The notes under the pieces are model-generated. The model did no database searches. It saw only the letters and a list, made by a program, of their open reading frames with translations, and was not told where the DNA came from. The position numbers and the translations under genes are program-made. From an uncultured Candidatus Saccharibacteria bacterium (lineage in GTDB: Bacteria; Patescibacteriota; Minisyncoccia; Minisyncoccales; PEYH01): a stretch of 64,000 nucleotides of DNA. This document shows positions 8,070 to 22,416 of this stretch, piece after piece. How positions within the stretch are numbered: position 1 is the first letter of the stretch; each line of letters begins with the position of its first letter. The DNA lies in the NCBI GenBank assembly GCA_964616145.1, contig CAZTRD010000003.1:5892-69891 (forward strand), written 5' to 3'.

Positions 8070-8097
8070 TTGACTTATATATAAAAAATGGTAGTCT
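8070..8097 (+). promoter_or_regulatory. Sigma70-type promoter of high-GC cassette A
   Basis: TTGACT (8070-8075), a 16-nt spacer, then TAGTCT (8092-8097) preceded by TGg (extended -10). Confidence 0.5.
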
Positions 8098-8128
8098 TGG
8101 ATTAGATTCCAACGAGTAAGGAGGACTT

Positions 8129-8644
8129 GTGATGGGAGAGAAGAAGGAGCACTTCGACGCTGTAACCTTGGCTTTCGTAGCCATCGCCATCGCCTGTGCC
8201 ATCTTCGGCAGTCTGGCCGCAGGGCTTATCCCTGCCAGAGAAGCGGGATTCGCCCTACTATCGTGGGCTGCTACTGGTCACGTGATCACGCTGATCTGCG
8301 TCATCATCCAACACGAGACCAACGCAGCTGTCGTACTCTTCGTCTTCATGGGCTTCTGGATCTGCGCTGGACTGGGTCTCAGCTTCTTGTCATCGCATGG
8401 ACTGCACAGGCTTCTGATGGTGATCGAGCCCACGCTGCTGGCTATCACCTTCCTGTGGCAGTTCTTGTACCGGAACAAGCGACAGCTGAGGTGCGTTCTC
8501 CTAGGCTTGGCCTGGGTAATCCTATGGCTCTTTGTCTCCAAGTTCATTCCCCAGTTAGGCGTGATGACGCCATACTGGGTGTGGGCTCTGGGCCTCTATC
8601 TGCTTCTATTGGCATTCTGGCGAAGACTGCACCCGGCAGGATAG
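8129..8644 (+). CDS. High-GC cassette A: 171-aa polytopic (about 6 TM) membrane protein, no recognised family
   Basis: GC jumps to ~55 % (hand count). AAGGAGGA lies 7 nt before ATG 8132 (GTG 8129 in the track). Codon third positions are G/C-rich. Six hydrophobic stretches are present (e.g. VTLAFVAIAIACAIFGSLAAGLI, AAVVLFVFMGFWICAGLGLSFL). Confidence 0.7.
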   Translation: MMGEKKEHFDAVTLAFVAIAIACAIFGSLAAGLIPAREAGFALLSWAATGHVITLICVIIQHETNAAVVLFVFMGFWICAGLGLSFLSSHGLHRLLMVIEPTLLAITFLWQFLYRNKRQLRCVLLGLAWVILWLFVSKFIPQLGVMTPYWVWALGLYLLLLAFWRRLHPAG

Positions 8645-8666
8645 AGGCACGATGATGCTCAACAAT

Positions 8667-8706
8667 GCACGGCACTAACCTTCGGGTTGGTGCCGTGTTC
8701 TGATTT
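8667..8706 (+). terminator. Intrinsic terminator of cassette A
   Basis: GCACGGCACUAACC-UUCG-GGUUGGUGCCGUG forms a ~14-bp GC-rich stem with a UUCG loop, followed by a U-rich tract (uucugauuu). Confidence 0.75.
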
Positions 8707-8757
8707 AATATATAATAATTTTGAACTATCTGATTTAATGTTACAATACAATGAATC

Positions 8758-9534
8758 ATGAACCTAATTCAAACCCAAGCTAAAGAAATCTTCACCAAAA
8801 CCAAACTACTTGGTTGCGATTGGGTGATTAATCAATATGTAGGCTGCGATCATGCCTGCCTCTATTGTTATGCCAAATTCATTTCTCGCTGGAAACCTCT
8901 AGATTATGGAAAATGGGGGACATGGGTAGAAGCAAAGATAAACGGAGGGGAATTAGTAAAGAATAGATATGTGAAAGGATTGGCATATATGAGTTCAATT
9001 TCTGATCCATACCAATCTATTGAAAAGGAATTGAAATTAACCAGAAAGATTCTGGAAAATCTTGATAAAAGAATCCATCTTATCATTCAAACCAAATCAG
9101 ATTTGGTTTTAAGAGATATTGATCTATTTAAACAATTTCAAAACATTGAAATTGGTTTTACGATAAACAGCTTTAATGGAATTTCAAAAGAAATTTTTGA
9201 ACCTTTTTCCGTTTCCAATGAAAAAAGAATAGAAGCTTTAAGGATTTTGAAGGAAAACGGATTAAAAACCTTTGTTTTTGTCAGCCCTATTATTCCTGGA
9301 TTGATAGACTTAAAGAAAGTAATTGATAATACCAAACAATTTACTGATTATTATTGGTTTGAATTCATTAACGTAAAAGCTGCGGGAAAGGAATTTATAG
9401 AAGCATTAAAAAAACATTTTCCTGAAAGCTATAATGTTTTAAATGATAAAAATGAATTCTTAAAATTCATTGCAGAATCAAAACAAATTATTTCTTCTCA
9501 AAACATTAATGTTAGGGGAATAGAAATACATTGA
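8758..9534 (+). CDS. Radical SAM protein (COG1533/SplB-like 'DNA repair photolyase' family)
   Basis: CxxxCxxC cluster motif 'GCDHACLYCYAKF' near the N-terminus, in the context INQYVGC...CYA typical of COG1533. About 258 aa TIM-barrel size. Confidence 0.6.
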   Translation: MNLIQTQAKEIFTKTKLLGCDWVINQYVGCDHACLYCYAKFISRWKPLDYGKWGTWVEAKINGGELVKNRYVKGLAYMSSISDPYQSIEKELKLTRKILENLDKRIHLIIQTKSDLVLRDIDLFKQFQNIEIGFTINSFNGISKEIFEPFSVSNEKRIEALRILKENGLKTFVFVSPIIPGLIDLKKVIDNTKQFTDYYWFEFINVKAAGKEFIEALKKHFPESYNVLNDKNEFLKFIAESKQIISSQNINVRGIEIH

Positions 9535-9574
9535 TTTTACAGATATTATTAAGAGTGGTAATATAAAGCATAAT

Positions 9575-10591
9575 ATGAAATTCCCTAGAACAAAGAAAAT
9601 AATATTCGTTAATAACAAAGGTGGAGTAGGAAAAACCACTTTGGCTTTTAATTGCGCGGTTTCTTTCGCAAAACAAGGATATAAGACAGTTCTAGTTGAT
9701 TTAGATCCCCAATGTAATCTGACCAGGCTTGCTATGGGCGAGCACTTCTACGAAAAAACCCTATTCTCAGATTCAGAAAAAACCATATATGACGTCTTGC
9801 GTGGAGTAATAGAGGGGGGATCCGATGTTAATATAGATGTTCAATTTTTACCAGTAAAAGCAAGCAGTAATCTTACATTACTCAAGGGAGATATTAGGCT
9901 TTCCTTATATGAAAGCATATTAATGTCCGCCTATGGACAAGCAGCAGCCGGAGCTCCCATAGGATATTTTCAAACAAGCGCGATAGATCGTTTTTTAAGA
10001 GAAAAGGGGCTAAGCGAACAGATAGATATTTTTGTCATAGACACGTCTCCAAGCTTAGGAATACTTAATGAAATAATCCTATTAGGGGCCGACTATTTTG
10101 TAGTGCCAATGATGCCAGACGCATTTAGCGTCCAAGGAATAGAGAATCTAGGAATAGTCTATGAACGCTGGAAGGCACTATGGCGCAATACCGCTAAGGC
10201 GCTTTCCGGAGATACTGAAACAAAATTCGTTCTTAACGGAGATCCGCTTTTTATAGGATATATTGTAAACTCTTACAATGTATATGGTCATCAGCCCATT
10301 GCTGATCATAGAATCTGGATGGGAAAAATTCCAGAAAAAGTAAAAAAATACCTCTCAGAAAAGCACTGCCGCAACGGGTTAGTAGAACAGAGCTGGAAGC
10401 AACCACTTCAAATTATTCAAGATTACGGTCGCATTCCGGCAAAATGCCAAGAATTAGGCGTAGCTATTTTTGATCTTGATCCGCAGTTAATAGCAGAGCA
10501 TCAGCAAGGTACGAAAGACAACATAGAGAAATCAAAAGAAGAATTTGATAATCTATCCAAAGCTATTATAGAAACACTTTCCGTCTATTAG
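9575..10591 (+). CDS. ParA/MinD-superfamily ATPase with long C-terminal extension
   Basis: Deviant Walker A 'NNKGGVGKTTLAFN', 'VLVDLDPQCNLT' and Walker B 'IFVIDTSPSLG'. 338 aa. The stop lies 3 nt before the rarA start. Confidence 0.75.
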   Translation: MKFPRTKKIIFVNNKGGVGKTTLAFNCAVSFAKQGYKTVLVDLDPQCNLTRLAMGEHFYEKTLFSDSEKTIYDVLRGVIEGGSDVNIDVQFLPVKASSNLTLLKGDIRLSLYESILMSAYGQAAAGAPIGYFQTSAIDRFLREKGLSEQIDIFVIDTSPSLGILNEIILLGADYFVVPMMPDAFSVQGIENLGIVYERWKALWRNTAKALSGDTETKFVLNGDPLFIGYIVNSYNVYGHQPIADHRIWMGKIPEKVKKYLSEKHCRNGLVEQSWKQPLQIIQDYGRIPAKCQELGVAIFDLDPQLIAEHQQGTKDNIEKSKEEFDNLSKAIIETLSVY

Positions 10592-10594
10592 TAA

Positions 10595-10697
10595 ATGGAA
10601 CCATTAGCTTCAAAGATAAGGCCAAAAACATTAAAGGACTTTGTAGGCCAGGAGCATTTGGTTGGAGAAGGAAAACCTTTAAATATTGCAATAAAAC
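10595..10697 (+). repeat. Right copy of the 103-bp rarA-5' direct repeat (left copy 7881-7983)
   Basis: 98 of 103 positions are identical by manual alignment. All five differences fall on third codon positions or a Leu first position and are synonymous (ccc/cca P, cta/tta L, ggg/gga G twice, cca/cct P). Confidence 0.9.
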
Positions 10698-11725
10698 AGA
10701 AACATCTGTTTTCCTTTATCTTCTGGGGCCCTCCCGGATCCGGAAAGACAACTTTGGCTAAGATATATGCTCATAGTTTAAATGCAGACCTATATGAATT
10801 ATCTGCAGTTTCTGCTGGAAAAGCAGATATCAGAAAGATCGTAATGGAAAATACATTACAGCCTAAGGTTTTGTTTTTAGATGAAATACATAGGTTTAAT
10901 AAAGCTCAACAGGATTTCTTACTCCCATATGTAGAAAGAGGGGAATTGGCTCTAATAGGAGCTACTACAGAAAACCCAAGCTTTGAAGTAATTGCTCCAT
11001 TACTATCCCGTTGCAGGGTTTTTGTCTTAAACGAATTGTCGCCGGAAGAAATGGTAACAATTATCAAGCGTACAGGTTTTAAGATGGATAAAAAAGCAGC
11101 GGATTGGTTAGTTGCAATGGCTAATGGCGATGCCAGGCAAGCCATTACAATGCTTGAGAATTGTTCTGAGTTATATAAATCAATAACTGTAGATAATTTA
11201 AAGAATGCTCTTCAATCCAAATTCTTACGATATGATAAAAAAGGAGAGGAACACTATAACACCATCTCTGCTTTCATTAAAAGCATGAGAGCAAGCCAAC
11301 CAGATGCAGCCCTCTACTATTTAGCCAGAATGATTGATTCTGGTGAAGATCCTAAATTCATTGCCAGAAGAATGGTAATCTTTGCCTCTGAAGACATAGG
11401 ATTAGCTCAACCAACTGCGTTGGTTGTAGCTAATGATGTATTCAGAGCAGTAGAGAATATTGGTTTGCCAGAATGCGGAATCAATCTGGCTCATGGAGTA
11501 GCATATCTTTGCAAATGCAAGAAGAATAGAGATGCATATAACGGATACATGGCTGCGATGAAAGATGTCCAAGATTATGGAAATCTTCCTATTCCTTTAA
11601 TGTTAAGGAATCCTGAAACAAAACTAATGAAGGATTTAGATTATGGCAAAGGATATGAAAAATATTCTAAAGAAGACTATTTGCCAGAGAAATTAAAGGG
11701 AAGAAAATATTTAAGAGAGTCTTGA
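10595..11725 (+). CDS. rarA: Replication-associated recombination protein A (AAA+ ATPase RarA/MgsA)
   Basis: 'LRPKTLKDFVGQEHL', Walker A 'GPPGSGKTTLA', Walker B 'VLFLDEIHRFNKAQQD', 'GATTENPSFEV', and a C-terminal MgsA domain with 'HYNTISAFIKSMRASQPDAALYYLARMIDSGEDPKFIARRM'. Confidence 0.9.
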   Translation: MEPLASKIRPKTLKDFVGQEHLVGEGKPLNIAIKQKHLFSFIFWGPPGSGKTTLAKIYAHSLNADLYELSAVSAGKADIRKIVMENTLQPKVLFLDEIHRFNKAQQDFLLPYVERGELALIGATTENPSFEVIAPLLSRCRVFVLNELSPEEMVTIIKRTGFKMDKKAADWLVAMANGDARQAITMLENCSELYKSITVDNLKNALQSKFLRYDKKGEEHYNTISAFIKSMRASQPDAALYYLARMIDSGEDPKFIARRMVIFASEDIGLAQPTALVVANDVFRAVENIGLPECGINLAHGVAYLCKCKKNRDAYNGYMAAMKDVQDYGNLPIPLMLRNPETKLMKDLDYGKGYEKYSKEDYLPEKLKGRKYLRES

Positions 11726-11758
11726 CAGAAGTATTACCGTTGTATATACTATGGATAT

Positions 11759-12034
11759 ATGAAAACAGTAATCAATATTAAAACCGATCCGGAGGTTAAA
11801 ATTAATGCCCAGAAAATTGCCAAAGAACTAGGTATAGCTCTTAGCGATGTTATCAATGCTTCTCTCAGAAACTTTATTAGAACGCGGGAGGTATATCTTT
11901 CTGCTATTCCAAGGATGACTCCAGAATTTGAAATTTTGCTTGGCAGAGTGGAGGACGATATAAAAAGAGGAAAGAATCTTTCTCCGGCATTTTCTTCTAT
12001 GGATGAAATTAATAATTACTTAGATAATTTATGA
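11759..12034 (+). CDS. Type II antitoxin (RelB/DinJ-like)
   Basis: 91-aa protein directly upstream of a RelE/YafQ-type toxin and overlapping it by 4 bp (ATGA). The N-terminal ribbon-helix-helix-like segment is 'VINIKTDPEVKINAQKIAKELGIALSDVINASLRNFI'. Confidence 0.65.
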   Translation: MKTVINIKTDPEVKINAQKIAKELGIALSDVINASLRNFIRTREVYLSAIPRMTPEFEILLGRVEDDIKRGKNLSPAFSSMDEINNYLDNL

Positions 12035-12294
12035 TTTCAATTATATTCCATAGAGATTTTGAGAAGAAATATATAAAACTATCGCAGAAAGATAAACAGA
12101 GAATAAAAGAAAGAATAAGAATTTTCAAGGAAGATATATTTAATCCCATACTTAATAATCATCCTCTAGAGGGTAAATATAAAGGGTATAGGAGTATTAA
12201 TATTACAGGAGATCTAAGGATTATATATAAATTACAAAATATTAATGTTATTATTTTCGTAGCCATCAATAATCATAGCAACCTATATAAATAG
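12031..12294 (+). CDS. Type II toxin, RelE/YafQ family mRNA interferase
   Basis: 'FEKKYIKLSQKDKQRIKERIRIF...NHPLEGKYKGYRSINITGDLRIIYK' matches the RelE/YafQ pattern (HxL.G...g.....i..d.R.iy). Confidence 0.7.
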   Translation: MISIIFHRDFEKKYIKLSQKDKQRIKERIRIFKEDIFNPILNNHPLEGKYKGYRSINITGDLRIIYKLQNINVIIFVAINNHSNLYK

Positions 12295-12299
12295 AATAA

Positions 12300-12683
12300 A
12301 TGAATAAAGGAGTAAGTGCTGTAATACAGAATAATAATCAGATTCTAGTTTTAAAAAGAATAGGGAATGTAGAATTTTCTCCTGGTACTTGGGATTTCCC
12401 AGGAGGGAAGGCTTTAGAAAACGAATCTTTAAAAGACGCTTTATTGAGAGAAGTAAAAGAAGAAACTAATTTAGAGATAGAACCGGAAGAAAATTATTTC
12501 TATATCTTTCCTTATCCTAACGGACAAATCAATATTTATGCCTTTAAAGCCAAGCTAATTGGAGGGAATATAGTATTAGATAAAAAACATACAGATTTTA
12601 AATGGATTTCCAAAGATAATTGGAAAGATTTAGATTATAGCTTAAGTACCAAAGCAATAATTCAAGAATATTTTAAATCTTGA
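12300..12683 (+). CDS. NUDIX hydrolase
   Basis: Nudix box 'GGKALENESLKDALLREVKEETNL' (Gx5Ex7REUxEExGU). Confidence 0.85.
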   Translation: MNKGVSAVIQNNNQILVLKRIGNVEFSPGTWDFPGGKALENESLKDALLREVKEETNLEIEPEENYFYIFPYPNGQINIYAFKAKLIGGNIVLDKKHTDFKWISKDNWKDLDYSLSTKAIIQEYFKS

Positions 12684-12736
12684 CTCTTGAAGAATAAAAA
12701 GAGAAAATAGAGTCATATAATTAATATATTTAACAT

Positions 12737-12976
12737 ATGGCAGGTTTAGTTATTCTCGGTTTAGTACTTATCGTTCTGGGTTGGGCCCTACAAGCATTCT
12801 TTACGTATAAAGGAGAAAGAGAAATACATATGCTTTTCCTTATCTGCTACGTATTAGGAGCATTTATTCTAGCTCTTGATGGATATCTTGAGAGTTCATG
12901 GCTTCCAGCAGTGCTTAATACCTTAGCTGTAATAGGTGTGGCATTGGTGATAAAAAAGATAGGGGTTAAAAAATAG
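12737..12976 (+). CDS. Small membrane protein (79 aa, 3 hydrophobic helices)
   Basis: MAGLVILGLVLIVLGWALQAFF, MLFLICYVLGAFILAL and LPAVLNTLAVIGVALVI. No family recognised. Confidence 0.5.
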   Translation: MAGLVILGLVLIVLGWALQAFFTYKGEREIHMLFLICYVLGAFILALDGYLESSWLPAVLNTLAVIGVALVIKKIGVKK

Positions 12977-12989
12977 ACAGGATAGGTTT

Positions 12990-13030
12990 AAAAACAGAAC
13001 GGGAGGGGATCGTAGTCCTCTCCCGTTTAC
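12990..13030. terminator. GC-rich hairpin between convergent genes (bidirectional terminator)
   Basis: AACGGGAGGGGA-ucguag-UCCUCUCCCGUU forms a ~12-bp stem with one G-U pair. A T-run follows on the minus strand (ctgtttttaaa) and a weaker one on the plus strand (tttacgttt). Confidence 0.65.
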
Positions 13031-13998
13031 GTTTCCTCGCTGTACGACACTTCCCAGTCCGATGTTCCAGACGGGAAGACCTCTGCGACGATGTAGTCCT
13101 TCTGGGCATCCAGACCGGTAGTGATGAGGAGCTCAATCCCGCCAAGTCTGCCAGAAGGGTCTCCCAGCGTTTCTGCCTGAGCGGCGACCTGGCACTCGAC
13201 AGGATCTGTCGCAATTTCAAGACCAAGAAGTTGTCTGAGATCGTAATAGAACCAATCCCTGACTGATCCATCGATCTTCTTGAGAGCTATTGCCAGCAGG
13301 TACAAAGGCCACTTTTCAGCAACCTCTTGCACCGCTTGCACTCCTTTCAGATCGGGGAATTTCTTTTTGCTCTCGAAATTGAATGTCCCTATGTAGCTAT
13401 AGAGCGCCACCCAGACGAATCTGGAAAAACCCTGAAGCTGATATTGCAGTTTCTTGTTCCCGTTAATCTCAGCCCAGAAGATATCGCGCACCAATAGAGC
13501 ATCTTCCCTTGAGAAGGTGAATCTCACGCCCCTAGGGACAGGAATTTCCACCTGTCTAGATCTAAGGGTTTTGATTCTTCTCCCGGGCAGATAGACTCTA
13601 TTGATTCGAATATTGTGGGTTGGAGATTTCCACGTCATTACCGTTACCCTGGTTATCCTTTGGATCAGCGTGAAAAGTTGCGGAGCAACTAGGAGGTATT
13701 GCTCTTCTGACAGAACTGCTTGTTTCTCGCGTCGAGGTATATATGATTCTCTCGGCAGTTTATCTCTGCCGTCGGACTTGTGATACGGCCTCGTGCGCCA
13801 GAGACCAATTTCCATCAGAACAGCTTGCTCGCTAGTACCGTCATGAACACCGACTACCGCTATCACATCCAATCTGGCTCGAGGATTCTCCGTGACCCTA
13901 AAAGAGGCATTGCCAGGATCTATGATGATCAGATACCTGGCATTTCTTTCAATGGTCTCCACGTCCCGTCTTGCTCTCTCTGGATCGAACCCTGACAT
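13027..13998 (-). CDS. High-GC cassette B: 324-aa soluble protein, no recognised family
   Basis: About 57 % GC (hand count). AGGAGGGAGG lies 7 nt upstream of the ATG at 13998 (MSGFDPERARR...). The longer track ORF (to 14091) adds 31 codons made of the AT-rich promoter region. An open frame of over 320 codons in GC-rich DNA is very unlikely by chance. Confidence 0.7.
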   Translation of the reverse strand: MSGFDPERARRDVETIERNARYLIIIDPGNASFRVTENPRARLDVIAVVGVHDGTSEQAVLMEIGLWRTRPYHKSDGRDKLPRESYIPRREKQAVLSEEQYLLVAPQLFTLIQRITRVTVMTWKSPTHNIRINRVYLPGRRIKTLRSRQVEIPVPRGVRFTFSREDALLVRDIFWAEINGNKKLQYQLQGFSRFVWVALYSYIGTFNFESKKKFPDLKGVQAVQEVAEKWPLYLLAIALKKIDGSVRDWFYYDLRQLLGLEIATDPVECQVAAQAETLGDPSGRLGGIELLITTGLDAQKDYIVAEVFPSGTSDWEVSYSEET

Positions 13999-14062
13999 TG
14001 ACTTTCCTCCCTCCTTTCGCATTTCAGCGAGTTTTTTGTACAAGGTGCAGAAATGATATTTC

Positions 14063-14091
14063 ACCTTAAAGGGTATATAAAAAAATGTCAA
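14063..14091 (-). promoter_or_regulatory. Sigma70-type promoter of cassette B
   Basis: On the minus strand: TTGACA (14091-14086), a 17-nt spacer, then TAAGGT (14068-14063). Confidence 0.45.
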
Positions 14092-14129
14092 ACATTGCTT
14101 TTTGGTTCTTTACTGCTAATATTTAATCA

Positions 14130-14501
14130 ATGGAAAGAATTGAATTTGAACAATTAGTAGAAAAAGGGGTTCTTTTAATTCCTAGAAAATTCAGACATTT
14201 GATGAAAAATGTCAGCATTGTAATTGATGATTATCCAACTCAAGAACAATTAAGAAAATCTCACATTAGATCCGGTTCCACGCTATTAGGCCTGTATGAA
14301 GGAATCCCTCAGACCCATAGAGATACTGGTTATGCTAATGTATTGCCAGACAAAATTACTATTTTCCAAAAAGCAATAGAAAGTATGGCTCATGATCCGA
14401 TATCGATAGAAAAACTGGTAGCAGATACCGTATGGCATGAAATAGCTCATCATTTTGGATTAAATGAACAAGAAATCAGGAATGCTCAAAGAAATGTTTA
14501 A
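14130..14501 (+). CDS. Zincin-like metallopeptidase family protein (DUF1025/Zincin_1-like)
   Basis: C-terminal 'TVWHEIAHHFGLNEQEI' contains the HExxH motif, in a ~120-aa protein with 'LLGLYEGIPQTHR', typical of this family. Confidence 0.7.
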   Translation: MERIEFEQLVEKGVLLIPRKFRHLMKNVSIVIDDYPTQEQLRKSHIRSGSTLLGLYEGIPQTHRDTGYANVLPDKITIFQKAIESMAHDPISIEKLVADTVWHEIAHHFGLNEQEIRNAQRNV

Positions 14502-15639
14502 ATTTGAAATAGAAAAAACTTCCAAAAAGAGCAAGGCAAGAGTTGGAACAATTACAACTCCTCATGGAAGGATAAAAACCCCTGCCTTTATCCCGGTAGC
14601 TACCTTTGGAGTAATTAAAGGAGGTTTGGATTTCAAGGATTTTGAGAAAACCAAGGCTCAATGCCAGATTACCAATACTTTTCACTTCATTGATCTTGAT
14701 AGGACTAAAGAAGTCAAGAATTTTGGCGGATTGCATAAATTCTTTAATTGCAACAAGCCAATTTTTACTGACTCAGGAGGATTTCAAGTATTTTCTTTGG
14801 GAAAGGGTGCAGAATTTGGTTTGGGAAAAATCGGTTCCATTTTTCCTGAAAAAAGAAATAAAGAGAAAACTTCTGCAAATCTTGTAAAAAGAATAGGGGA
14901 TAAGGGAGTATTCTTTAAATCACCGAAAGATGGAAGAGAAATATGGCTTACTCCGGAATCTTCCGCTTTAGCCCAAAAAGAATTAGGAGCTGACTTCATA
15001 TATCTTTTTGATGTTTGCGGATCTCCCTTAGATGGCAAGCAAACCACAAAAAGGGAGATGGAATTAAGCCATGAATGGTTTAAAAGGTTTTTAAATACAA
15101 AAATATCCTTAAATCAAAGGGTTTTTGGAATTATTCAAGGAGGGATTTATAGGGACCTGAGGATTAAATCAACAGAATTTGTAAACAATCTTGACGTATT
15201 CGGAATAGCTATTGGCGGAGCTTTAGGAAAGAAAAAAGAAGATATGTATAAGACAATATCTTGGGTAAATGAAAGGATTGACTGGCAGAAACCTCATCAT
15301 TTATTAGGAATAGGGGATTTGGATGTAATGGAGAAGATAATCAAATTAGGAATTGATCTTTTTGATTGCGCCCTGCCAACAAGGATTGCCAGACATGGAG
15401 TAGCTTTAACATCCAAAGGCCCTATAGATTTAAAGAAGTCCGTCTTAAAGGATAGATTCAAACCATTGGATAAAGATTGCAAATGTTTTGCCTGCCAAAA
15501 CTATACTCAGGCCCAGATTAATTTCCTTTTCAAATCAAAGGAACAATTAGCCGGACGGCTATTAACTATTCATAATCTGTATTTCATTGAATCTCTTTTA
15601 GAGAAAATCAGAGAAAAGATAGAGGATAACAAGTTTTAA
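14494..15639 (+). CDS. tgt: Queuine tRNA-ribosyltransferase (tRNA-guanine transglycosylase)
   Basis: 'MFKFEIEKTSKKSKARVGTITTPHGRIKTPAFIPVAT' is the Tgt N-terminus. 'FTDSGGFQVFSL' and 'GIAIGG' are present, and the zinc site is 'CKCFACQNYTQAQINFL...H'. The track ORF starts at 14464; in-frame ATGs at 14482 and 14494 fit the family N-terminus better and shorten the overlap with the upstream gene. Confidence 0.85.
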   Translation: MFKFEIEKTSKKSKARVGTITTPHGRIKTPAFIPVATFGVIKGGLDFKDFEKTKAQCQITNTFHFIDLDRTKEVKNFGGLHKFFNCNKPIFTDSGGFQVFSLGKGAEFGLGKIGSIFPEKRNKEKTSANLVKRIGDKGVFFKSPKDGREIWLTPESSALAQKELGADFIYLFDVCGSPLDGKQTTKREMELSHEWFKRFLNTKISLNQRVFGIIQGGIYRDLRIKSTEFVNNLDVFGIAIGGALGKKKEDMYKTISWVNERIDWQKPHHLLGIGDLDVMEKIIKLGIDLFDCALPTRIARHGVALTSKGPIDLKKSVLKDRFKPLDKDCKCFACQNYTQAQINFLFKSKEQLAGRLLTIHNLYFIESLLEKIREKIEDNKF

Positions 15640-16562
15640 AATTTTAAGAAAGAGGAGTGAGGAGTTTGAATCTTTCTAAAATAGTAAAACTGTTTTTTCA
15701 AATCAGCTCCTGGGGGCCCGTTTTGTATTCTATCTAAAAACTTCTGCAGATTTTTGTACTTTCCCTGTCCTATGATTTCAATAAAGTCATTTTCAATATT
15801 TTTTGCTTTTCCTTTGATATCAAATCTCTTTGCCCATAATCTTGCATAATTCCTGAATCCGATTCCTTGGACTGTCCCTTGGGCTTTAAAATATATTTCA
15901 AGATCATCTTCCTGAAATGTTTTTAAATCTATCGCCTCATTGATAGTGAATCTGTCTACTTTAATCCTGGTCAAAGAATTAAGAAGACCTCCTGTATTCA
16001 ATAGATTCCCTAAATCATTGGCTAAGCTGCGGATATAGTAACCGGAACTGACCAAAAGCTCTAATTTTACAATTGCATAATCTTTCTTGATTGAATAATC
16101 AAGAATTTTGTATTCAAAAAGTTCTACTTCTTTTGGTTGCAATTCAAATTCTTTTCCTTCCCTGGCTAATTTGTAAGCCGGGATACCAGATATTTTAACC
16201 GCAGAATATTTTGGAGGAGTTTGTTTTCTTTTTCCCAGAAAAGAATTTAAAGATTTTTCAATTTCTTTTTTTGCAGGAAATTCTTTTACATTTAATTTCT
16301 CTACATTACCTGTAATATCATATGTATCTGATCTGCTTCCTAAAAGAATTTCAGCAATGTATTGCTTTTTGCTGTTTTTCAATATCGTATTTAAAACGCT
16401 GGTAGCGTTCTTGCCAATGGCAACGATTAAAACTCCCTTTGCAAAAGGATCTAAGGTTCCCCCATGCCCTATGGTTTTTTCATTAAGCCTTCTCTTGAGA
16501 AAATTGACTACATCAAAGGAAGTCCAAGTCTCCGGTTTATTAATAACAGCTATTCCTCTCAT
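15636..16562 (-). CDS. truB: tRNA pseudouridine-55 synthase fused to a C-terminal acylphosphatase-like domain
   Basis: The N-terminal 'GIAVINKPETWTSFDVVNFLKR...IGHGGTLDPFAKGVLIVAIG' carries the TruB motifs, including the catalytic Asp. The C-terminal ~90 aa 'YFKAQGTVQGIGFRNYARLWAKRFDIKGKAKNIENDFIEIIGQG' matches both acylphosphatase signatures (V.G.VQGVGFR ; G.v.N..dG.Ve). Confidence 0.8.
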   Translation of the reverse strand: MRGIAVINKPETWTSFDVVNFLKRRLNEKTIGHGGTLDPFAKGVLIVAIGKNATSVLNTILKNSKKQYIAEILLGSRSDTYDITGNVEKLNVKEFPAKKEIEKSLNSFLGKRKQTPPKYSAVKISGIPAYKLAREGKEFELQPKEVELFEYKILDYSIKKDYAIVKLELLVSSGYYIRSLANDLGNLLNTGGLLNSLTRIKVDRFTINEAIDLKTFQEDDLEIYFKAQGTVQGIGFRNYARLWAKRFDIKGKAKNIENDFIEIIGQGKYKNLQKFLDRIQNGPPGADLKKQFYYFRKIQTPHSSFLKF

Positions 16563-16605
16563 ATTTCTGCATTTTTGCAGATTATTTTAAATATGGCAAT
16601 AATGA

Positions 16606-16634
16606 TTGACTAAAATTGTTTAATTGATTAAGAT
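16606..16634 (+). promoter_or_regulatory. Sigma70-type promoter of cassette C
   Basis: TTGACT (16606-16611), a 17-nt spacer, then TAAGAT (16629-16634). Confidence 0.55.
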
Positions 16635-16666
16635 TTACAAGAACACTCGTCCGCAAAGGAGATACC

Positions 16667-16945
16667 TTGAGCAAACAGAAGCGCACCGGCAGGAAAGATG
16701 CCCCTACTGTCCTGGAGATTCTGCTAAGGCATTCAAGCATTACTGATGCCTCAGCAAAGACGCTCTTCGACGGATCGGGCATAGGAGACGATCGCAGTGA
16801 CTTTGCTGCTATCGCCGGGGAGATCAACTACTACTTCGCGCCCAGGCCATCGATTGATCCAAGCTGGATGAAAACATTGGCGACGACCCCGGGGATCAGG
16901 TTCAATGTCTTGATCGATAGGGTCGAACATGACCGAACAAGGTAG
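16667..16945 (+). CDS. High-GC cassette C: 92-aa protein, no recognised family
   Basis: AAGGAG lies 5 nt before the TTG start at 16667. About 55 % GC (hand count). The ORF spans the whole GC-rich block and is followed by a strong terminator. No TM segment. Confidence 0.55.
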   Translation: MSKQKRTGRKDAPTVLEILLRHSSITDASAKTLFDGSGIGDDRSDFAAIAGEINYYFAPRPSIDPSWMKTLATTPGIRFNVLIDRVEHDRTR

Positions 16946-16961
16946 TCATACAACGGGCACC

Positions 16962-17000
16962 GACGCCTGAGGCCAAAAACCTCGGGCGTCTTCCTTTTTT
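16962..17000 (+). terminator. Intrinsic terminator of cassette C
   Basis: GACGCCUGAGG-ccaaaaa-CCUCGGGCGUC forms an 11-bp stem with one G-U pair, followed by UUCCUUUUUU. Confidence 0.8.
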
Positions 17001-17027
17001 CATACAATCAAGTAATATTTAAAGAGT

Positions 17028-19955
17028 ATGGTAAAGAAAAATGAATCAATATATCTTGAAGGGTTAAATCCAGAACAGATAGAAGCTGCTACTTTTGGCA
17101 ACGGACCTCTTCTAATTGTTGCCGGAGCTGGAACAGGGAAAACCACAGCCATTACTAAAAGAATTGCCTACCTGATAGAAAAGGGGCTGGCTAAATCAGA
17201 AGAAATCCTAGCTGTAACATTTACAGACAAGGCAGCACAGGAAATGGAAGAAAGGGTGGATAAAACTCTGCCTTTTGGATATCTGGATCTATGGATTTCC
17301 ACATTTCATTCTTTTGCCCAAAGAATTCTAGAACAGCATGGATTAGATATTGGTTTGCCTAATAATTTTAAGATACTAGATGATACAGCTGCTTGGCTGC
17401 TGATAAGGAAAAATCTTAATCTTTTTGATTTGGACTATTACAAACCAATGGGCAATCCCACTAAATTCATTTCAGCAATGCTTGATCATTTTTCCAGATG
17501 CAAGGATCAAGGAATATATCCTGATGAATATGTTTTGTATGCTGATAAGTTTAAGGGTGATGAAGATGAAAAAAACAGATTAAAAGAAATCTCTAGCGCA
17601 TACAAAACATATCAGAACCTATTACTTCAAAACAACTATCTTGATTTTGGAGATCTAATAATGTATTGCTTGAAACTCTTTAAAGACAGACCAAAGATAT
17701 TAAAAGAATATCAGGATAAATTCAAATATATTCTTGTGGATGAATTCCAGGATACTAATTGGGCTCAATATGAATTGATTAAAATGATAGCCCATCCAAG
17801 AAATAACATTACTGTCTGCGCAGATGATGACCAGGCAATATATCGCTGGAGGGGGGCATCTTTTAACAATGTTTTGCAATTCAGCAAGGATTTTGAAAAA
17901 GCAAAACAGATAGTTTTAATTAAAAACTACCGCTCAGGACAAAACATATTGGATCTGTCATATGGATTCATTCAATTAAACAATCCCAATCGTTTGGAAT
18001 TCCAGTTAAGCCAGGAAAAAGAAATCGCCAGTCAGGCAAAAAAGAAAGGATTAAAGATTAATGAATTCAAAGCAGTAAGTAAAAAACTTACTGCAGAGAT
18101 TGAACCCTTGGCAATGATTGAAAATCTGCATTTTAAAACATTGGAAGAAGAGAATAGGGGAGTGGCTGATAAGATAGAGGACTTAATGAGAGAAAAGAAG
18201 GCTCAATCATTGTCTGATTTTGCAATCCTTACAAGATCCAATGATGCGGCCCAGCCATTCATTAAAGAATTGGAAAGAAGGGGAATAGCTCATCAATTCT
18301 TGGCATCAAGAGGACTATATGCCCAGCCTATAATCATGGATGTGATAGCATATTTTAAATTATTGGATGATTATCATGAAAGCCCGGCTGTATTCAGGAT
18401 ATTAACTTCTCCGATATTAAACATTCCATATCAGGAGCTAGCTAAAATATCATATGTTGCCAGAATTAAAACCTGGTCATTGTATGAAGTATTGTTAAAT
18501 ATCAATTCCGTCTATGATATTTCTTTGGACTCCAAAGAAAAAATCAGAAAGTTTATCCAGCTGGTAGAAAGCCATACAAAGATTGCCAAAGAAAAAACCA
18601 TAACTTCTCTTTTAATACATTTTCTTAATGAATCTTTGTATCTTAAATATCTGGTTAAGAATAACAAGCAAAGAGAAATCTCTTTGTTAAATCAATTCTT
18701 AAAAAAGATTAAGCAATTTGAAGAAAGCGAAGCAGATCCAAGCTTAAAGAATTTCGTTAACCTATTAAATCTGGAAATTGAGGCAGGGGAATTGGGGAAT
18801 CTGGAAACTAATCTGGAAGAAGGGCCTGATACCGTGAAGATAATGACAATACATGGAGCAAAAGGATTGGAATTTCCTTTTGTTTTTGTTGTAAATCTAG
18901 TAGACAGAAGATTTCCAACAGATCAAAGAAAAGATCCGATAGAACTTCCAGAAGAATTAATCAAAGACATTCTTCCTTCCGGAGATATTCATCTCCAGGA
19001 AGAAAGAAGATTATTTTATGTTGCCATGACCAGAGCTAAAAAGGGACTGTTTTTCTGCTGGGCAGATGACTATGGCGGCCAAAGAAAGAAAAAACCATCT
19101 CTTTTCCTATATGAATTAGGTTTGGTTAAGGAAGAAACTATTCCGTCTCAGCAAATATTGTTTGAACAGCCAAAAGAATTAGTAAAACCGGATAAAGAAG
19201 TAAGGTTGCCTTCATACTTTTCATATACCCAGATAGCCGCATTTGAAAGATGCCCGTTGCAGTATAAGTATGCGCATATTTTAAATATTCCAAGAGCCGG
19301 AAGTGCAGTTTTCAGCTTTGGAAAAACAATGCATGCAACTTTCCAGCATTTCATTGAAGAAGTGAATAAAGCTGGAATAGATAAAATGACTTTAAAGCGT
19401 TTGCTGGAAATATATGAGGAACAATGGATTGATGAATGGTATGAATCCAAAGAACAAAAAGAAAGGAGATTTGAATCCGGAAAGAAATCCTTGGAAGAAT
19501 TCTTCAAGGATTTCAAGGAGAAAAAACCCAAGTCCTTTATCTATCAGGGACAGCCTGCTTTGGAATTATCTTTTGTATTAAAGATTAATAACTATCCTGT
19601 TAAAGGACAGATAGACAGGATTGATGATACAAAAGAGGGAATTGAGATAATTGATTACAAAACAGGCCAGTTAAAGGATAAATTGGATAAAGATGATAAG
19701 CAGCAATTATTGATCTATCAACTAGCTAGTCAGGACGTGTTGAAGATAAATCCTGCCAGATTAACATATTACTATGTTGATCATGCAAAGAAGATGTCTT
19801 TTGTTCCCACCAAACAAGAATTAGAAGAATTCAAAGAAAATATTTCTAAAAAGATAGAAGAAATACAACATAGCGATTTTGCTCCCAATCCCAGCGAATT
19901 TAATTGCAAATTCTGCGATTTTAAAGATATTTGCGAATTTAAAAAATTAAATTAA
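17028..19955 (+). CDS. UvrD/PcrA-family helicase with C-terminal PD-(D/E)XK (Cas4/AddB-like, Cys-cluster) nuclease domain
   Basis: Helicase motifs 'AGAGTGKTTAITKR', 'ILVDEFQDTN', 'NYRSGQNIL', 'MTIHGAKGLEFPFVFV' and 'EERRLFYVAMTRAK'. The C-terminal region has 'FERCPLQYKY', 'GQIDRID...IEIIDYKTG' (D...D/ExK) and 'CKFCDFKDIC' (Cys cluster). Confidence 0.85.
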   Translation: MVKKNESIYLEGLNPEQIEAATFGNGPLLIVAGAGTGKTTAITKRIAYLIEKGLAKSEEILAVTFTDKAAQEMEERVDKTLPFGYLDLWISTFHSFAQRILEQHGLDIGLPNNFKILDDTAAWLLIRKNLNLFDLDYYKPMGNPTKFISAMLDHFSRCKDQGIYPDEYVLYADKFKGDEDEKNRLKEISSAYKTYQNLLLQNNYLDFGDLIMYCLKLFKDRPKILKEYQDKFKYILVDEFQDTNWAQYELIKMIAHPRNNITVCADDDQAIYRWRGASFNNVLQFSKDFEKAKQIVLIKNYRSGQNILDLSYGFIQLNNPNRLEFQLSQEKEIASQAKKKGLKINEFKAVSKKLTAEIEPLAMIENLHFKTLEEENRGVADKIEDLMREKKAQSLSDFAILTRSNDAAQPFIKELERRGIAHQFLASRGLYAQPIIMDVIAYFKLLDDYHESPAVFRILTSPILNIPYQELAKISYVARIKTWSLYEVLLNINSVYDISLDSKEKIRKFIQLVESHTKIAKEKTITSLLIHFLNESLYLKYLVKNNKQREISLLNQFLKKIKQFEESEADPSLKNFVNLLNLEIEAGELGNLETNLEEGPDTVKIMTIHGAKGLEFPFVFVVNLVDRRFPTDQRKDPIELPEELIKDILPSGDIHLQEERRLFYVAMTRAKKGLFFCWADDYGGQRKKKPSLFLYELGLVKEETIPSQQILFEQPKELVKPDKEVRLPSYFSYTQIAAFERCPLQYKYAHILNIPRAGSAVFSFGKTMHATFQHFIEEVNKAGIDKMTLKRLLEIYEEQWIDEWYESKEQKERRFESGKKSLEEFFKDFKEKKPKSFIYQGQPALELSFVLKINNYPVKGQIDRIDDTKEGIEIIDYKTGQLKDKLDKDDKQQLLIYQLASQDVLKINPARLTYYYVDHAKKMSFVPTKQELEEFKENISKKIEEIQHSDFAPNPSEFNCKFCDFKDICEFKKLN

Positions 19956-19959
19956 ACAT

Positions 19960-20337
19960 ATGAACTATGATAAATTGTTCGGCTACTTGCTATTGCTATT
20001 AGGAATCGTAATCATTTTACTTTCTTTATTCTATTCCTTTAAAATATTTACAGGAAAAACATCAGCTCCTGATATTTTCAAAAAAGAGATTGCCATATCG
20101 CAGGATAAAACAATAGATCAGAAGAATCTAACTCAGGAAAATATGCAGGACTACGTTTCCCAAACAGTGAAGAATAGCATAGAAACGGTTCTTCCTGAGA
20201 ATTTCACAACAAGAGTGATAAATCTGGCTTGCTGGGGCGTATTTGCCGGTATAGCGATAATGGCCGGAGGAAAGATAGGGAATTTAGGGATAAATTTAAT
20301 CACTAAAAGCAGAAAATCAGAATTAAAAGAAGGTTGA
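19960..20337 (+). CDS. Small membrane protein (125 aa)
   Basis: N-terminal TM (LFGYLLLLLGIVIILLSLFYSF) and C-terminal TM (LACWGVFAGIAIMAGG). No family recognised. Confidence 0.5.
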   Translation: MNYDKLFGYLLLLLGIVIILLSLFYSFKIFTGKTSAPDIFKKEIAISQDKTIDQKNLTQENMQDYVSQTVKNSIETVLPENFTTRVINLACWGVFAGIAIMAGGKIGNLGINLITKSRKSELKEG

Positions 20338-20361
20338 TTTTTAATGAAAATCTTGTAGAAT
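20334..20361 (+). promoter_or_regulatory. Sigma70-type promoter of cassette D (overlaps the stop of the upstream gene)
   Basis: TTGATT (20334-20339), a 16-nt spacer, then TAGAAT (20356-20361). Confidence 0.5.
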
Positions 20362-20425
20362 AGTAATCAGCTCTTCAAGAAGGAGGTGAGGTGCCATTAC
20401 CGCAGTAATTGCGATCCTGAAGGGC

Positions 20426-20914
20426 ATGTGGGCAGTTTTACTCGGTGGCGCGCTAGGAGTTGGCGCATGGAGATTCAACGGTGTGCCGTTCGAACAGGCT
20501 TGGATGACGCTGGTAATTTACAGCGTCGTTGTCATCCTGCTGGTTTTCTTTTTCGTTAACATGGCCGAGAAGCTGTGGGAACGAATCAGAGAGACTGATC
20601 TGGGGCAGTCAATCGAACGGACAAGGATGGCATCCCAGATACAATCTGTCATAGGGCTGTTGAGAAACCACAACAACGGCACTAGCCAGATGAAGCACAA
20701 CGTCAAGAAAAAGTTGCTCAAGACAGCTCCCTGGCTAGTAGTACTCTTGTACTACTTGCCGATCCCAGTAGTCGGAGATGCTGTAGTTATTCTAGCCAAA
20801 GCATTAGTAGACACGAAAGTGTTGAAAATGCGATGGGTACTCCCGGTACTCTTCGGGGGAGTTATCTTCAAGAGTTGGATCACCTGCGTGATCTGGTACC
20901 AAAAACCTCTATGA
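20426..20914 (+). CDS. High-GC cassette D: 162-aa 4-TM membrane protein, no recognised family
   Basis: About 52 % GC (hand count) with a G/C3-rich frame. Hydrophobic helices include AWMTLVIYSVVVILLVFFFV, PWLVVLLYYLPIPVVGDAVVILA and WVLPVLFGGVIFKSWITCVIW. The start is uncertain. The AGGAGG at 20381-20386 is 40 nt from ATG 20426. The frame is open back to 20390, and an in-frame ATT at 20396 would have ideal SD spacing. Confidence 0.6.
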   Translation: MWAVLLGGALGVGAWRFNGVPFEQAWMTLVIYSVVVILLVFFFVNMAEKLWERIRETDLGQSIERTRMASQIQSVIGLLRNHNNGTSQMKHNVKKKLLKTAPWLVVLLYYLPIPVVGDAVVILAKALVDTKVLKMRWVLPVLFGGVIFKSWITCVIWYQKPL

Positions 20915-20953
20915 GAAACGGCAAGGCCAAAAGTCATGCCGTTCTCTATTTTT
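20913..20953 (+). terminator. Intrinsic terminator of cassette D
   Basis: GAG(A)AACGGCA ... UGCCGUUCUC stem (7 bp + 3 bp with one bulge) followed by UAUUUUUAU. Confidence 0.65.
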
Positions 20954-20960
20954 ATCAACA

Positions 20961-20990
20961 TTGACAATAACTCATCTTTAATGATATAAT
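20961..20990 (+). promoter_or_regulatory. Consensus sigma70 promoter of cassette E
   Basis: TTGACA (20961-20966), an 18-nt spacer, then TGaTATAAT (extended -10; TATAAT at 20985-20990). A 10-bp stem-loop (CAGCACAUCG-uaag-CGAU(c)GUGCUG, 20996-21020) sits at the predicted 5' end of the transcript. Confidence 0.65.
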
Positions 20991-21033
20991 ATAGGCAGCA
21001 CATCGTAAGCGATCGTGCTGAAAGGAAGGTTAT

Positions 21034-21258
21034 ATGAACGAGGTTCAGTTAGAAGATGTTAGATGCGACATTCGTGTCATCACGGATGTAGGCATCTGCG
21101 TCTTCGAAAGAACCTCCTCTGGGTCGTTGGGTCGCCTAAAGATGAAAGACGATCCGTCAACCGATGAGGGGGAAGTAAGGAAACTGGGCCTCCTAGCGCT
21201 TGCCGAACAGAGGGAATGTACTTTTGTCGGCTACGCGCTCAAGGAGGGCGATCGCTAG
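21034..21258 (+). CDS. High-GC cassette E: 74-aa acidic soluble protein, no recognised family
   Basis: AAGGAAGG lies 5 nt before the ATG. About 55 % GC (hand count). A strong terminator follows immediately. Confidence 0.55.
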   Translation: MNEVQLEDVRCDIRVITDVGICVFERTSSGSLGRLKMKDDPSTDEGEVRKLGLLALAEQRECTFVGYALKEGDR

Positions 21259-21307
21259 CCGCCACGAGTCAAACAGACACACGACTCGTGGCGAGCTTTC
21301 TTTTTTA
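21259..21307 (+). terminator. Intrinsic terminator of cassette E
   Basis: CGCCACGAGUC-(12-nt loop)-GACUCGUGGCG forms an 11-bp stem (21260-21293), followed by AGCUUUCUUUUUU. Confidence 0.8.
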
Positions 21308-21350
21308 ATCTCATTCATGTTAAGATAGAAGAATTAATTATTCATACAAC

Positions 21351-21644
21351 ATGGATTATCTATACACTATCATCGGAGGGTTAGGCGGTGGAACGGTAAG
21401 GGGATTAATCGGATATGTAAAACATCAATTTGCATACAAGCAAGTTGATTTTAAGTTACCATACTTTTTTGTAATGATTTTTCTTTCCGGAGTAATCGGA
21501 ACGCTATGCGCTGCCGCCATAGACAAATCAGACATTGCCGGTATAATTAGTAGCCCGGCCATATCATTCATTGTCGGATATGCCGGAGGCGATTTTTTAG
21601 ATAACATATACAAGATATTAATCAGAAAAAAAGATGCAGTATAA
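21351..21644 (+). CDS. Small membrane protein (97 aa, 3 helices)
   Basis: Gly-rich N-terminal helix (LYTIIGGLGGGTVRGLIGYV), then YFFVMIFLSGVIGTLCAAAI and ISSPAISFIVGYAGG. Overlaps the next gene by 11 nt. No family recognised. Confidence 0.5.
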   Translation: MDYLYTIIGGLGGGTVRGLIGYVKHQFAYKQVDFKLPYFFVMIFLSGVIGTLCAAAIDKSDIAGIISSPAISFIVGYAGGDFLDNIYKILIRKKDAV

Positions 21645-22416
21645 TAATATTGATTGGTTTAAAAGCAAGCATGGACATGAAGTTGGAGGTTTCTGGGTTC
21701 CGAGAGTTACGGCAATTACAGAAATAATCAACAAACCGGCATTGCTTAAATACTATGCCCAGCAGGAGAGCTTTGAAGCAGCCCAGGTGTTGCTTAAAAA
21801 TTCCGCTAATTGGGGAACAAAAACTCATGCAGCAATAGAGCAATTGTTAAAAGGAGAAGAAATTGAACCTAATACACAAATAGCTCCGTCTATACAGGCA
21901 TTCAATGATTGGTTTTCCCAATACAATGTATCGATAACATCTCCGGAAGAAGATATTGAAAGAATGATTTTTGATCCCGATAACTATTACGCCGGAAGAA
22001 TGGACGCGTTAATAGAGATTAACGGAGAATTAGGAATTTTGGATATCAAAACCGGAACAGGAATCTGGGAAGAATACTATCTGCAGACAGCTGCCTACTT
22101 AAATGCATATAATAAGACGGCTCCGTCTCAAAGAATTGCAGACAAAAGATGGATACTGAGGGTGGAACAATATCAGGAGTGCGTTTTTTGCGGAGCTAAA
22201 AAAAGGGGGAAGAGCGGAACCGATGTGATTAAGGGAGGAAATACGTATTGCACTCATCAATTCGGTCCAGAAAAAGGTATTTTTGAATTCAAGGATTTGC
22301 CGGATAATGAGCATGATATCGAAGCATTCCTTAATGCTCAGAAATTATGGGAATGGTATAATCAAGACAATCTTAAAAAGATCAAAAATTATCCAAAGAA
22401 ATTAAAAAATGACTGA
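21634..22416 (+). CDS. PD-(D/E)XK (RecB/Cas4-like) nuclease with inserted Cys-rich segment
   Basis: 'YYAGRMDALIEINGELGILDIKTGTGIWEEYYLQTAAYLNAY' gives D ... (D)IK ... QxxxY, the RecB-family nuclease core. An inserted 'CVFCGAKKRGKSGTDVIKGGNTYCTHQF' is zinc-ribbon-like. Confidence 0.65.
   Translation: MQYNNIDWFKSKHGHEVGGFWVPRVTAITEIINKPALLKYYAQQESFEAAQVLLKNSANWGTKTHAAIEQLLKGEEIEPNTQIAPSIQAFNDWFSQYNVSITSPEEDIERMIFDPDNYYAGRMDALIEINGELGILDIKTGTGIWEEYYLQTAAYLNAYNKTAPSQRIADKRWILRVEQYQECVFCGAKKRGKSGTDVIKGGNTYCTHQFGPEKGIFEFKDLPDNEHDIEAFLNAQKLWEWYNQDNLKKIKNYPKKLKND

Follow-up and report, generated by a model that had tools for sequence, protein, structure and literature searches.

Genes D and E lie next to each other on the forward strand of contig CAZTRD010000003.1 (GenBank assembly GCA_964616145.1), in a stretch of 64,000 nucleotides (positions 5,892 to 69,891 of the contig) that was analysed as a whole and is called the window below. 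On balance, they are probably two separate, strain-variable accessory genes, each held in a fixed and transcriptionally insulated slot of a Paceibacterota chromosome, with the open reading frame (ORF) of the slot swapped by recombination. Both genes are housed in a hyperplastic stretch with five GC-rich single-ORF units (A to E). In relatives, the ORF of a slot is a hyper-divergent allele (D) or a sequence that cannot be aligned (E and C), even where the backbones are 96-98% identical.

Relatives were traced via the adjacent UvrD-PD-(D/E)XK helicase and are, by annotation, Candidatus Paceibacterota (candidate phyla radiation, CPR; Patescibacteria). The two closest other species are represented by L008 (GCA_964619515.1) and L013 (STA_67); the latter is annotated as Candidatus Paceibacterota, and its UvrD is 91% identical to that of the window. 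The housekeeping neighbours of D and E are truB, tgt, a uvrD-like gene, an HD protein gene, ftsZ and the enolase gene. The slots are anchored on the left by a small membrane protein gene, p125, and on the right by another, p97. The p125 protein is 77-82% identical in L008, L013 and L067 and 41% identical in L066, and in each case a D-like gene comes next downstream of its gene. Conversely, wherever the contig reaches far enough upstream of a D-like gene, this gene sits directly after UvrD-p125. The p97 protein is 87-89% identical in the close relatives, and its adjacency to p260 (a 260-aa PD-(D/E)XK nuclease gene) is retained in the distant ones.

Between these anchors the contents change from genome to genome. 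L008 is the sole relative with D and E together, in the same order and 70% and 78% identical to the window, respectively. In L013, D is 69% identical and the E slot holds E', an ORF of 72 aa that cannot be aligned with E. The conserved sequence runs from the E promoter through the initial transcribed bases GGTAGCACAT and resumes with the last two codons, the stop codon and the terminator (GATCGCTAA-GCCGCCACGAGTC...); the replacement of E by E' is thus bounded by GGTAGCACAT and GATCGCTAA, with promoter and terminator kept. The backbones of L067 and L013 are 95.6-98.1% identical and E' is identical in both. L067 carries a D allele, D'', that shares just 24% identity with window D, and as little with the L066 allele; its DNA cannot be aligned with D of L013. 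Homology between L013 and L067 is lost at the last base ahead of the start codon (L013 6020 / L067 4624) and is picked up again within the 3' arm of the terminator. The slot C ORFs of the same two genomes cannot be aligned either, despite the near-identical backbone. In the more distant L066 and L069 (p260 79% identical), the D allele is 27-30% identical to window D; after it come the same extended -10 and first transcribed bases (TATAATATAGGTAGC), and then a third ORF, E''. L068 lacks an E slot, and its D-like gene lies 118 bp ahead of p97. Members of the L018 group, with UvrD 61% identical, have a different unit in place of D and E. The homology breaks lie on one side at the start codon or the first transcribed bases, and on the other side in the terminator or the last two codons.

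The proteins of the E slot have isoelectric points (pI) of 4.7, 9.65 and 10.4; one allele class is acidic, the two others are basic. No homology among them was detected by hhalign, and shuffles of the global alignments gave z values of 2.8-3.0 in three of 15 pairs, which is marginal. These z values are a hint that the ORFs in the E slot could be strongly diverged alleles instead of sequences without relationship. The last two codons are GAT CGC (Asp-Arg), before the stop codon, in E, in the E of L008 and also in E', which cannot be aligned.

The initial annotation described two high-GC units back to back, each with its own promoter and terminator, and all of these features were found again in place (Table 1). 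It also put about 8 nt between the D terminator and the -35 hexamer of E; the adjacency holds, the distance does not, as 5 nt (CAACA) separate the T-run of D from the -35. The D promoter is kept in L008, L013 and L067 and is recognisable in L066, and the stem of the D terminator is conserved in relatives. The E promoter is the sole 12/12 match in 18 kb. Its extended -10 and the bases transcribed first (TATAATATAGGTAGC) are shared by six loci, including the distant L066 and L069, with single-base exceptions in the window and in L008, at one position each. The D-terminator/E-promoter junction is likewise conserved in six loci. In L008, the stem-loop in the 5' leader of the E transcript is weaker, and the E' allele, with its leader replaced, lacks it. 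The E terminator is kept in L008, L013 and L067, even with the ORF replaced. As a class, promoter-like sites are not enriched in the region (62 found, 54.8 expected), so that support for the promoters comes from their conservation in relatives and not from the scan. Between species, the promoter and terminator sequences of the slots are about 83% conserved, about as much as the coding backbone, which argues that they are under constraint.

D and E are real coding genes. The ratio of nonsynonymous to synonymous divergence (dN/dS) is 0.17-0.26 for D (against L008 and L013) and 0.13 for E (against L008). Synonymous divergence (dS) from L008 and L013 is 0.82-0.93 for D and E, within the range of the flanking genes (0.52-1.49); the two genes were therefore present before the species of L008, L013 and the window split, and are not recent arrivals. 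D encodes a basic membrane protein (pI 10.1) with four transmembrane (TM) segments, at residues 4-22, 36-54, 114-132 and 148-166. The four-TM hydropathy pattern and the motifs are retained in D alleles that are 24-30% identical to window D.

Two explanations had been offered for the odd start of D, a non-canonical start codon and leader-peptide coupling. The first is supported. Window D has an in-frame ATT at 20396, preceded by an in-frame stop codon (TGA, 20387-20389) and followed by an ATG at 20426. The position of the ATT is TTG in L008 and L013 and GTG in L066, at the same distance from the Shine-Dalgarno (SD) sequence. Between L008 and L013, the ten codons upstream of the position of ATG 20426 differ by three synonymous changes and no replacement, and thus evolve as coding sequence. 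The codon at the position of ATG 20426 itself changes from ATG to TTG (Leu) between L008 and L013; with Leu at this position in L013, the downstream ATG is not the start of the family. The second explanation relied on an out-of-frame mini-ORF of five codons. Its GTG is missing in L008 and L013, which have GGTACT there; leader-peptide coupling is therefore unlikely, and the mini-ORF is probably fortuitous. In L067, D'' (4610-5302, about 225 aa) has an extra hydrophobic N-terminal segment, with ACG at the position aligned to the TTG/GTG start of the family and no canonical start codon at SD distance. This ACG is a possible second non-canonical start in the D family, and weak initiation behind a strong SD may be recurrent there. 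That a strong SD is repeatedly paired with a weak start codon (ATT in the window, perhaps ACG in one allele) suggests that synthesis of this membrane protein is deliberately throttled.

The five units stand out in base composition. The mean GC of the window is 0.353, rising to 0.45-0.56 at 20300-21300, and islands A to E have 48-57% GC; the remaining 43 kb of the window contain no comparable island of at least 350 bp. All five islands are built alike, from a single ORF with a sigma-70-like promoter, a strong SD and, at its end, a strong hairpin with a T-run. The GC content at third codon positions (GC3) is 0.60 in both D and E and 0.53-0.71 in the five island ORFs, compared with 0.30 +/- 0.04 (maximum 0.44) in 54 backbone ORFs, a z of about 7 for D and E. 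Every allele of slots C, D and E has a GC3 of 0.53-0.63, despite saturated divergence. C and G are both raised at third positions of the cassette alleles; Lys and Asn are reduced and Arg, Ala and Trp increased (a Lys-to-Arg shift). Such a base composition and amino-acid usage is typical of genomes with about 50-55% GC. It is also present in the D alleles that are 24-30% identical to window D, which points to an equilibrium rather than to a recent transfer that has yet to ameliorate. The operon of the L018 type deviates far less (GC3 0.33-0.42). There are two candidate causes of the lasting mid-GC composition: the locus may be a recombination hot spot subject to GC-biased gene conversion (gBGC; PMC4450053), or the genes may draw on a GC-richer gene pool that is so far unsampled. 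The empty database searches described below count against the latter. The islands have a mild excess of GATC (29 sites, compared with 18.9 +/- 3.9 in shuffled sequence). CGATCG occurs at both ends of the E ORF (21010, 21249), and its enrichment is not significant. A repeat search over window 7900-21500 found no repeat family linking the cassette borders that could serve as a shared recombination motif.

The homology and structure searches proposed for D and E led to no known family or fold. Searches of Pfam, PHROGs, PADLOC and NCBIfam with all five cassette proteins, and with two alternative alleles, did not rise above noise, and sequence searches of the PDB (single-sequence and profile) gave no match. 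Among 5.8 billion clustered proteins, D and E have one other cluster each (70% and 78% identical, respectively), and HMMER over 1.84 billion representatives found one further relative of D, 29% identical. D, E and B had no match in IMG/VR, INPHARED phages or PLSDB plasmids. The AlphaFold2 (AF2) model of D is unreliable (predicted local distance difference test, pLDDT, 58.6). The AF2 model of E (pLDDT 72) has four beta strands followed by one helix; in a Foldseek search of the PDB it matched nothing below E = 0.37, and its top match, AcrF10 (probability 0.2), is not meaningful. A holin role of D is not supported, with no Pfam or PHROG holin hit and no lysin found among the neighbours. At the cassettes, Rfam gave only an 18-bit chance hit to the SurA small RNA. 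In the literature, nothing specific on hypervariable GC-rich islets of CPR genomes was found.

As we picture it, the ORFs would be exchanged between co-existing relatives via homologous recombination, with the conserved terminator-promoter junctions and the flanking housekeeping genes serving as homology arms. An incoming ORF would be correctly expressed, and the neighbouring genes would be shielded. D would be a polytopic inner-membrane protein translated from the weak ATT behind the strong SD, and E a small cytosolic protein with the predicted fold of four strands and one helix. The two proteins would act independently. Their most likely role, and the weakest step of the proposal, would be in conflict or recognition (phage, host cell or competitor), of a kind that favours rare alleles. 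Such a role would lead to hyper-divergence of alleles within a species together with purifying selection inside each allele lineage. This combination is a product of negative frequency-dependent selection, and a role towards phage, host or competitor is favoured for this reason.

Several points weigh against the slot model. The promoters and terminators are predicted, from consensus matches and conservation, and the recombination is deduced from mosaic identity. The regulatory junctions are not repeated within the genome; intragenomic shuffling in the style of promoter-early stem-loop (PeSL) cassettes is thus unsupported, leaving exchange between genomes at the same locus only. The function of D and E is purely inferred, with no family, defence-system, phage or structural match. 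The model also leaves the persistence of high GC across divergent alleles without explanation: the sharp GC edges at the ORF boundaries are not predicted by a simple conversion-tract model of gBGC, and the polarised changes in D (14 weak-to-strong, 19 strong-to-weak) are too few to separate gBGC from amelioration.

A wider version of the slot model would address the composition. Paceibacterota, and perhaps other CPR bacteria, would keep insulated single-gene slots among their housekeeping genes, in which purifying selection preserves promoter and terminator while the ORF is continually replaced from a pool of mid-GC orphans (GC3 about 0.6 against 0.3). The high GC would be kept up by an unseen, GC-richer mobile pool or virus landing at the junctions, or by locus-specific conversion or targeted diversification. 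We put this forward tentatively and regard it as unlikely.

About as unlikely is that D and E are recent arrivals or morons from a phage, a plasmid or the host of the symbiont, with a GC content of about 50-55% and not yet ameliorated. The composition and amino-acid usage of a mid-GC genome, the separate promoter and terminator of each gene and their orphan status would agree with this. So would the OLD-like nuclease, methylase and toxin-antitoxin pair nearby, and a duplicated 5' fragment of rarA that brackets cassette A and two genes and resembles an integration scar. However, the synonymous divergence of D and E from L008 and L013 (0.82-0.93) is that of the backbone and predates the species split. 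Moreover, a relative of D that is 29% identical (phmmer; 27-30% in other alignments) sits in this slot in a lineage with only 55% identity at the C-terminus of UvrD, and GC3 is 0.53-0.63 in all alleles whatever their divergence, which is saturated. No relatives were found in IMG/VR, INPHARED or PLSDB, nor outside the slot in two protein collections, and no phage or integrase genes are present among the ORFs examined.

The initial annotation likened D and E to a toxin/immunity or holin/antiholin pair. In this explanation, D would be a membrane toxin or holin and E its soluble immunity protein or antiholin, or the two would form a toxin-antitoxin system. As in such pairs, the two small genes are adjacent and on the same strand, about 5-8 nt apart, one coding for a membrane protein and the other for a small acidic, soluble one. 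Downstream lies p97 with its weak holin-like hits, and a toxin-antitoxin pair of YafQ/ParE type occurs elsewhere in the region. Against this, toxin-antitoxin and toxin-immunity pairs are co-transcribed as an operon, whereas D and E have a predicted promoter and terminator each, with what appear to be a strong terminator and a consensus promoter between them. The partners of such pairs also co-occur and co-vary strictly, and D and E do not. The co-occurrence that had been suggested as a check holds in L008 (D with E) and fails elsewhere: D is found with E' in L013, D'' with E' in L067, a D-like gene with another E-slot ORF (E'') in L066/L069, and a D-like gene without an E slot in L068. The E-slot proteins are not consistently acidic, there is no match in Pfam, PHROGs, PADLOC or NCBIfam, and no lysin gene was found among the neighbours. 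With D and E assorting independently and the acidity of the E-slot protein varying, a cognate pair is not supported, and we regard this explanation as quite improbable.

It is very improbable that the high-GC stretches are structured RNAs, or ORFs that arose by chance from the scarcity of stop codons in GC-rich DNA. In AT-rich genomes, a GC-rich island is often an RNA gene, the cassettes are overlapped by several long ORFs that are antisense or in another frame, and there are strong hairpins at both ends; yet dN/dS is 0.13-0.26 with changes mostly at third positions, the TM pattern and motifs are kept across strongly diverged D alleles, and Rfam returned nothing beyond the chance hit. A chimera of assembly or binning that joined a CPR genome to foreign fragments can practically be dismissed, since the abrupt composition shifts and the breaking of part of the contigs at junctions stand against identical junctions in contigs of at least three assembly sources and the same architecture, naturally diverged, in at least five other related genomes.

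Contigs of these sources (ENA ERZ27248937 and ERZ27248920, JGI 3300028299, Logan SRR8437217) match the stretch at 100% identity. Contigs from other assemblies of the same strain end at window 20912 / 21013 (the D-terminator/E-promoter junction) and at 16978 (the C terminator). Two contigs stop at an identical point within E (21161), and some other contigs also end inside ORFs. Ends at cassette junctions are what co-existing variants would produce through branching of the assembly graph, and suggest such variants.

Table 1. Position and nature of the features described in the text (window coordinates unless a locus is named; limits of islands A to C are approximate)
Feature	Position	Strand	Description
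p125	19960..20337	+	conserved backbone small membrane protein without known family; left anchor of D slot
Island D	20334..20955	+	GC-rich unit
D promoter (predicted)	20334..20361	+	TTGATT-16-TAGAAT, 9/12; -35 overlaps p125 stop codon
D Shine-Dalgarno	20381..20386	+	AGGAGG; GGAGGTG conserved in relatives
Mini-ORF	20391..20408	+	out-of-frame, 5 codons, GTG 20391 to TAA 20406-20408
Gene D	20396..20914	+	172 aa from ATT 20396, 162 aa from ATG 20426
D intrinsic terminator (predicted)	20913..20955	+	hairpin 20913-20946, -16.7 kcal/mol, z -4.8, then T-run
Island E	20961..21307	+	GC-rich unit
E promoter (predicted)	20961..20990	+	TTGACA-18-TGnTATAAT, 12/12 with upstream TG
E-transcript 5' leader stem-loop	20996..21020	+	10 bp with one bulge, -12.9 kcal/mol, z -2.7
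E Shine-Dalgarno	21021..21029	+	AAAGGAAGG
Gene E	21034..21258	+	74 aa, acidic, pI 4.7, soluble
E intrinsic terminator (predicted)	21257..21307	+	hairpin 21257-21297, -24.7 kcal/mol, z -7.6, then T-run
p97	21351..21644	+	small membrane protein, weak holin-like hits; right anchor of slot
Cassette (island) A	8070..8700	+	promoter, AAGGAGG, 170-aa 6-TM ORF 8132-8644 (GC3 0.71), terminator 8667-8698
Cassette (island) B	12990..14095	-	323-aa ORF 13998..13027 (GC3 0.53), Shine-Dalgarno GGAGGGAGG, terminator ~12995-13025
Cassette (island) C	16606..16995	+	92-aa ORF 16667-16945 (GC3 0.63), terminator 16962-16990
Slot C ORFs	L013 2156-2548; L067 842-1186; window 16667-16945		GC-rich
L018 unit	L018 3020-3910 (also L071-L076)		perfect TTGACA-17-TATAAT, AGGAGG, overlapping 161-aa + 92-aa orphan operon, terminator; p97 absent
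OLD-like AAA_15-TOPRIM nuclease adjoining N6/N4 DNA methylase; serpin; YafQ/ParE-type toxin with 91-aa upstream partner	266-2731, 5364-6620, 11759-12294		accessory/defence-type

The other three cassettes share the build of units D and E. Cassette A is preceded by a hairpin (8042-8059), followed by the -35 at 8070, and an exact-match look-up found it solely in the same context. The two copies of a direct repeat of about 104 nt, at window 7883-7986 and 10595-10698, share an 84-nt core at 96% identity. The first of them lies just upstream of cassette A and duplicates, in truncated form, the 5' end of a RarA/MgsA-like gene; the 2.7 kb between the copies contain cassette A, a radical-SAM gene and a ParA/CbiA-like gene. 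This 2.7-kb stretch looks like a Campbell-type or duplicative insertion. The sole relative of cassette B is 29% identical and lies on a 1.3-kb contig that also resembles a stand-alone unit. Cassette C has no exact match on record. In three close relatives, slot C is found between truB and the uvrD-like gene with conserved flanks, but each has a GC-rich ORF of its own there, unrelated to the other two; in the more distant L014, L030 and L073, the site is occupied by an acyl-carrier-protein gene of normal GC.

The left 21 kb of the window carry accessory genes, among them those for an OLD-like ATPase-TOPRIM protein, an N6/N4 methylase, a serpin and a YafQ/ParE-type pair. An S-adenosylmethionine (SAM; S-box) riboswitch was found at window 4470-4581 (55 bits), upstream of a 141-aa ORF (4634-5059) without a Pfam family. 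To the right of the slots, p97 (the pair at window 21351-22416; also L078-L081) is always directly upstream of, and overlaps, the p260 nuclease gene, even at 42-51% identity. This pairing is conserved without an obvious rationale; the LydA/holin-like hits of p97 are below threshold (E about 0.01-0.03).

CPR/Patescibacteria have tiny, streamlined genomes and are thought to be host-dependent, and the generation of diversity among their strains is poorly known. The locus offers a compact route to diversity, with fixed, insulated regulatory slots whose coding content is swapped between near-identical genomes. It is of interest mainly for its setting and its unexplained composition. Cassettes of this type are recognisable by a GC3 outlier ORF with a consensus promoter and a strong terminator, and could thus be mined across CPR genomes; such mining could reveal genes for interactions with phages, hosts or competitors. 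The lasting mid-GC composition in an AT-rich genome also makes a natural test case of GC-biased gene conversion versus hidden gene pools in bacteria.

Among known systems, integron cassettes consist of a promoterless ORF and an attC site (R''/R' cores RYYYAAC...GTTRRRY), with an IntI integrase nearby. The cassettes described here have their own promoters, their hairpins show no attC core motifs by eye, and no integrase was found in the ORFs scanned (part of the window ORFs). Phage morons (Juhala et al. 2000, Hendrix and colleagues) are reportedly autonomous single genes with their own promoter and factor-independent terminator. D and E resemble them as autonomous units between conserved genes with a composition unlike that of their neighbours. 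Unlike morons, they are old residents that co-diverged with the backbone; the flanking ORFs have no significant phage-family hits, and the cassette proteins none in PHROGs, IMG/VR or INPHARED. The replacement flexible genomic islands and islets of free-living bacteria (Rodriguez-Valera and Lopez-Perez) are said to have usually surface or phage-interaction functions. The likeness to these lies in a fixed chromosomal position, where conspecific strains have divergent or non-homologous versions that are exchanged via recombination in the flanks. They differ in that a single small ORF (70-230 aa) is replaced here, with breakpoints in its own promoter and terminator, and not a multi-gene cluster for glycosylation or O-antigen, and in that the cassette products are orphans.

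The PeSL cassettes of T4-type phages come closest. In the accounts of Arbiol et al. 2010 (PMC2839356) and Comeau et al. 2014 (PMC4122927), a stem-loop able to terminate transcription from upstream and a sigma-70 promoter flank ORFans in hyperplastic regions, and recombination at these elements swaps the ORFs, supplying both expression and insulation. By the same accounts, PeSL is a motif of about 100 bp with tens of copies per genome, which may form encapsidated mini-circles; the junctions found here are locus-specific and share only generic hexamers. The setting differs as well, being a cellular CPR chromosome with housekeeping neighbours and not a T4-type phage. The cassette ORFs here are also strikingly different in base composition, a feature that the parts consulted of PMC2839356 do not mention for PeSL. 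In common with PeSL as so described, a terminator stem-loop, a sigma-70 consensus promoter and an SD directly flank small ORFans (the D/E junction, cassette A, the L018 unit), replacements of ORFs between very close relatives (L013 and L067; the window and L013) are bounded by these elements, and an incoming ORF would inherit the signals for expression and insulation. The pattern had been described for the hyperplastic regions of T4-type phages, and not for a cellular chromosome; if the wider version of the slot model is true, cells would have an equivalent of the PeSL shuffling of phages, and the slots would serve as a gene nursery.

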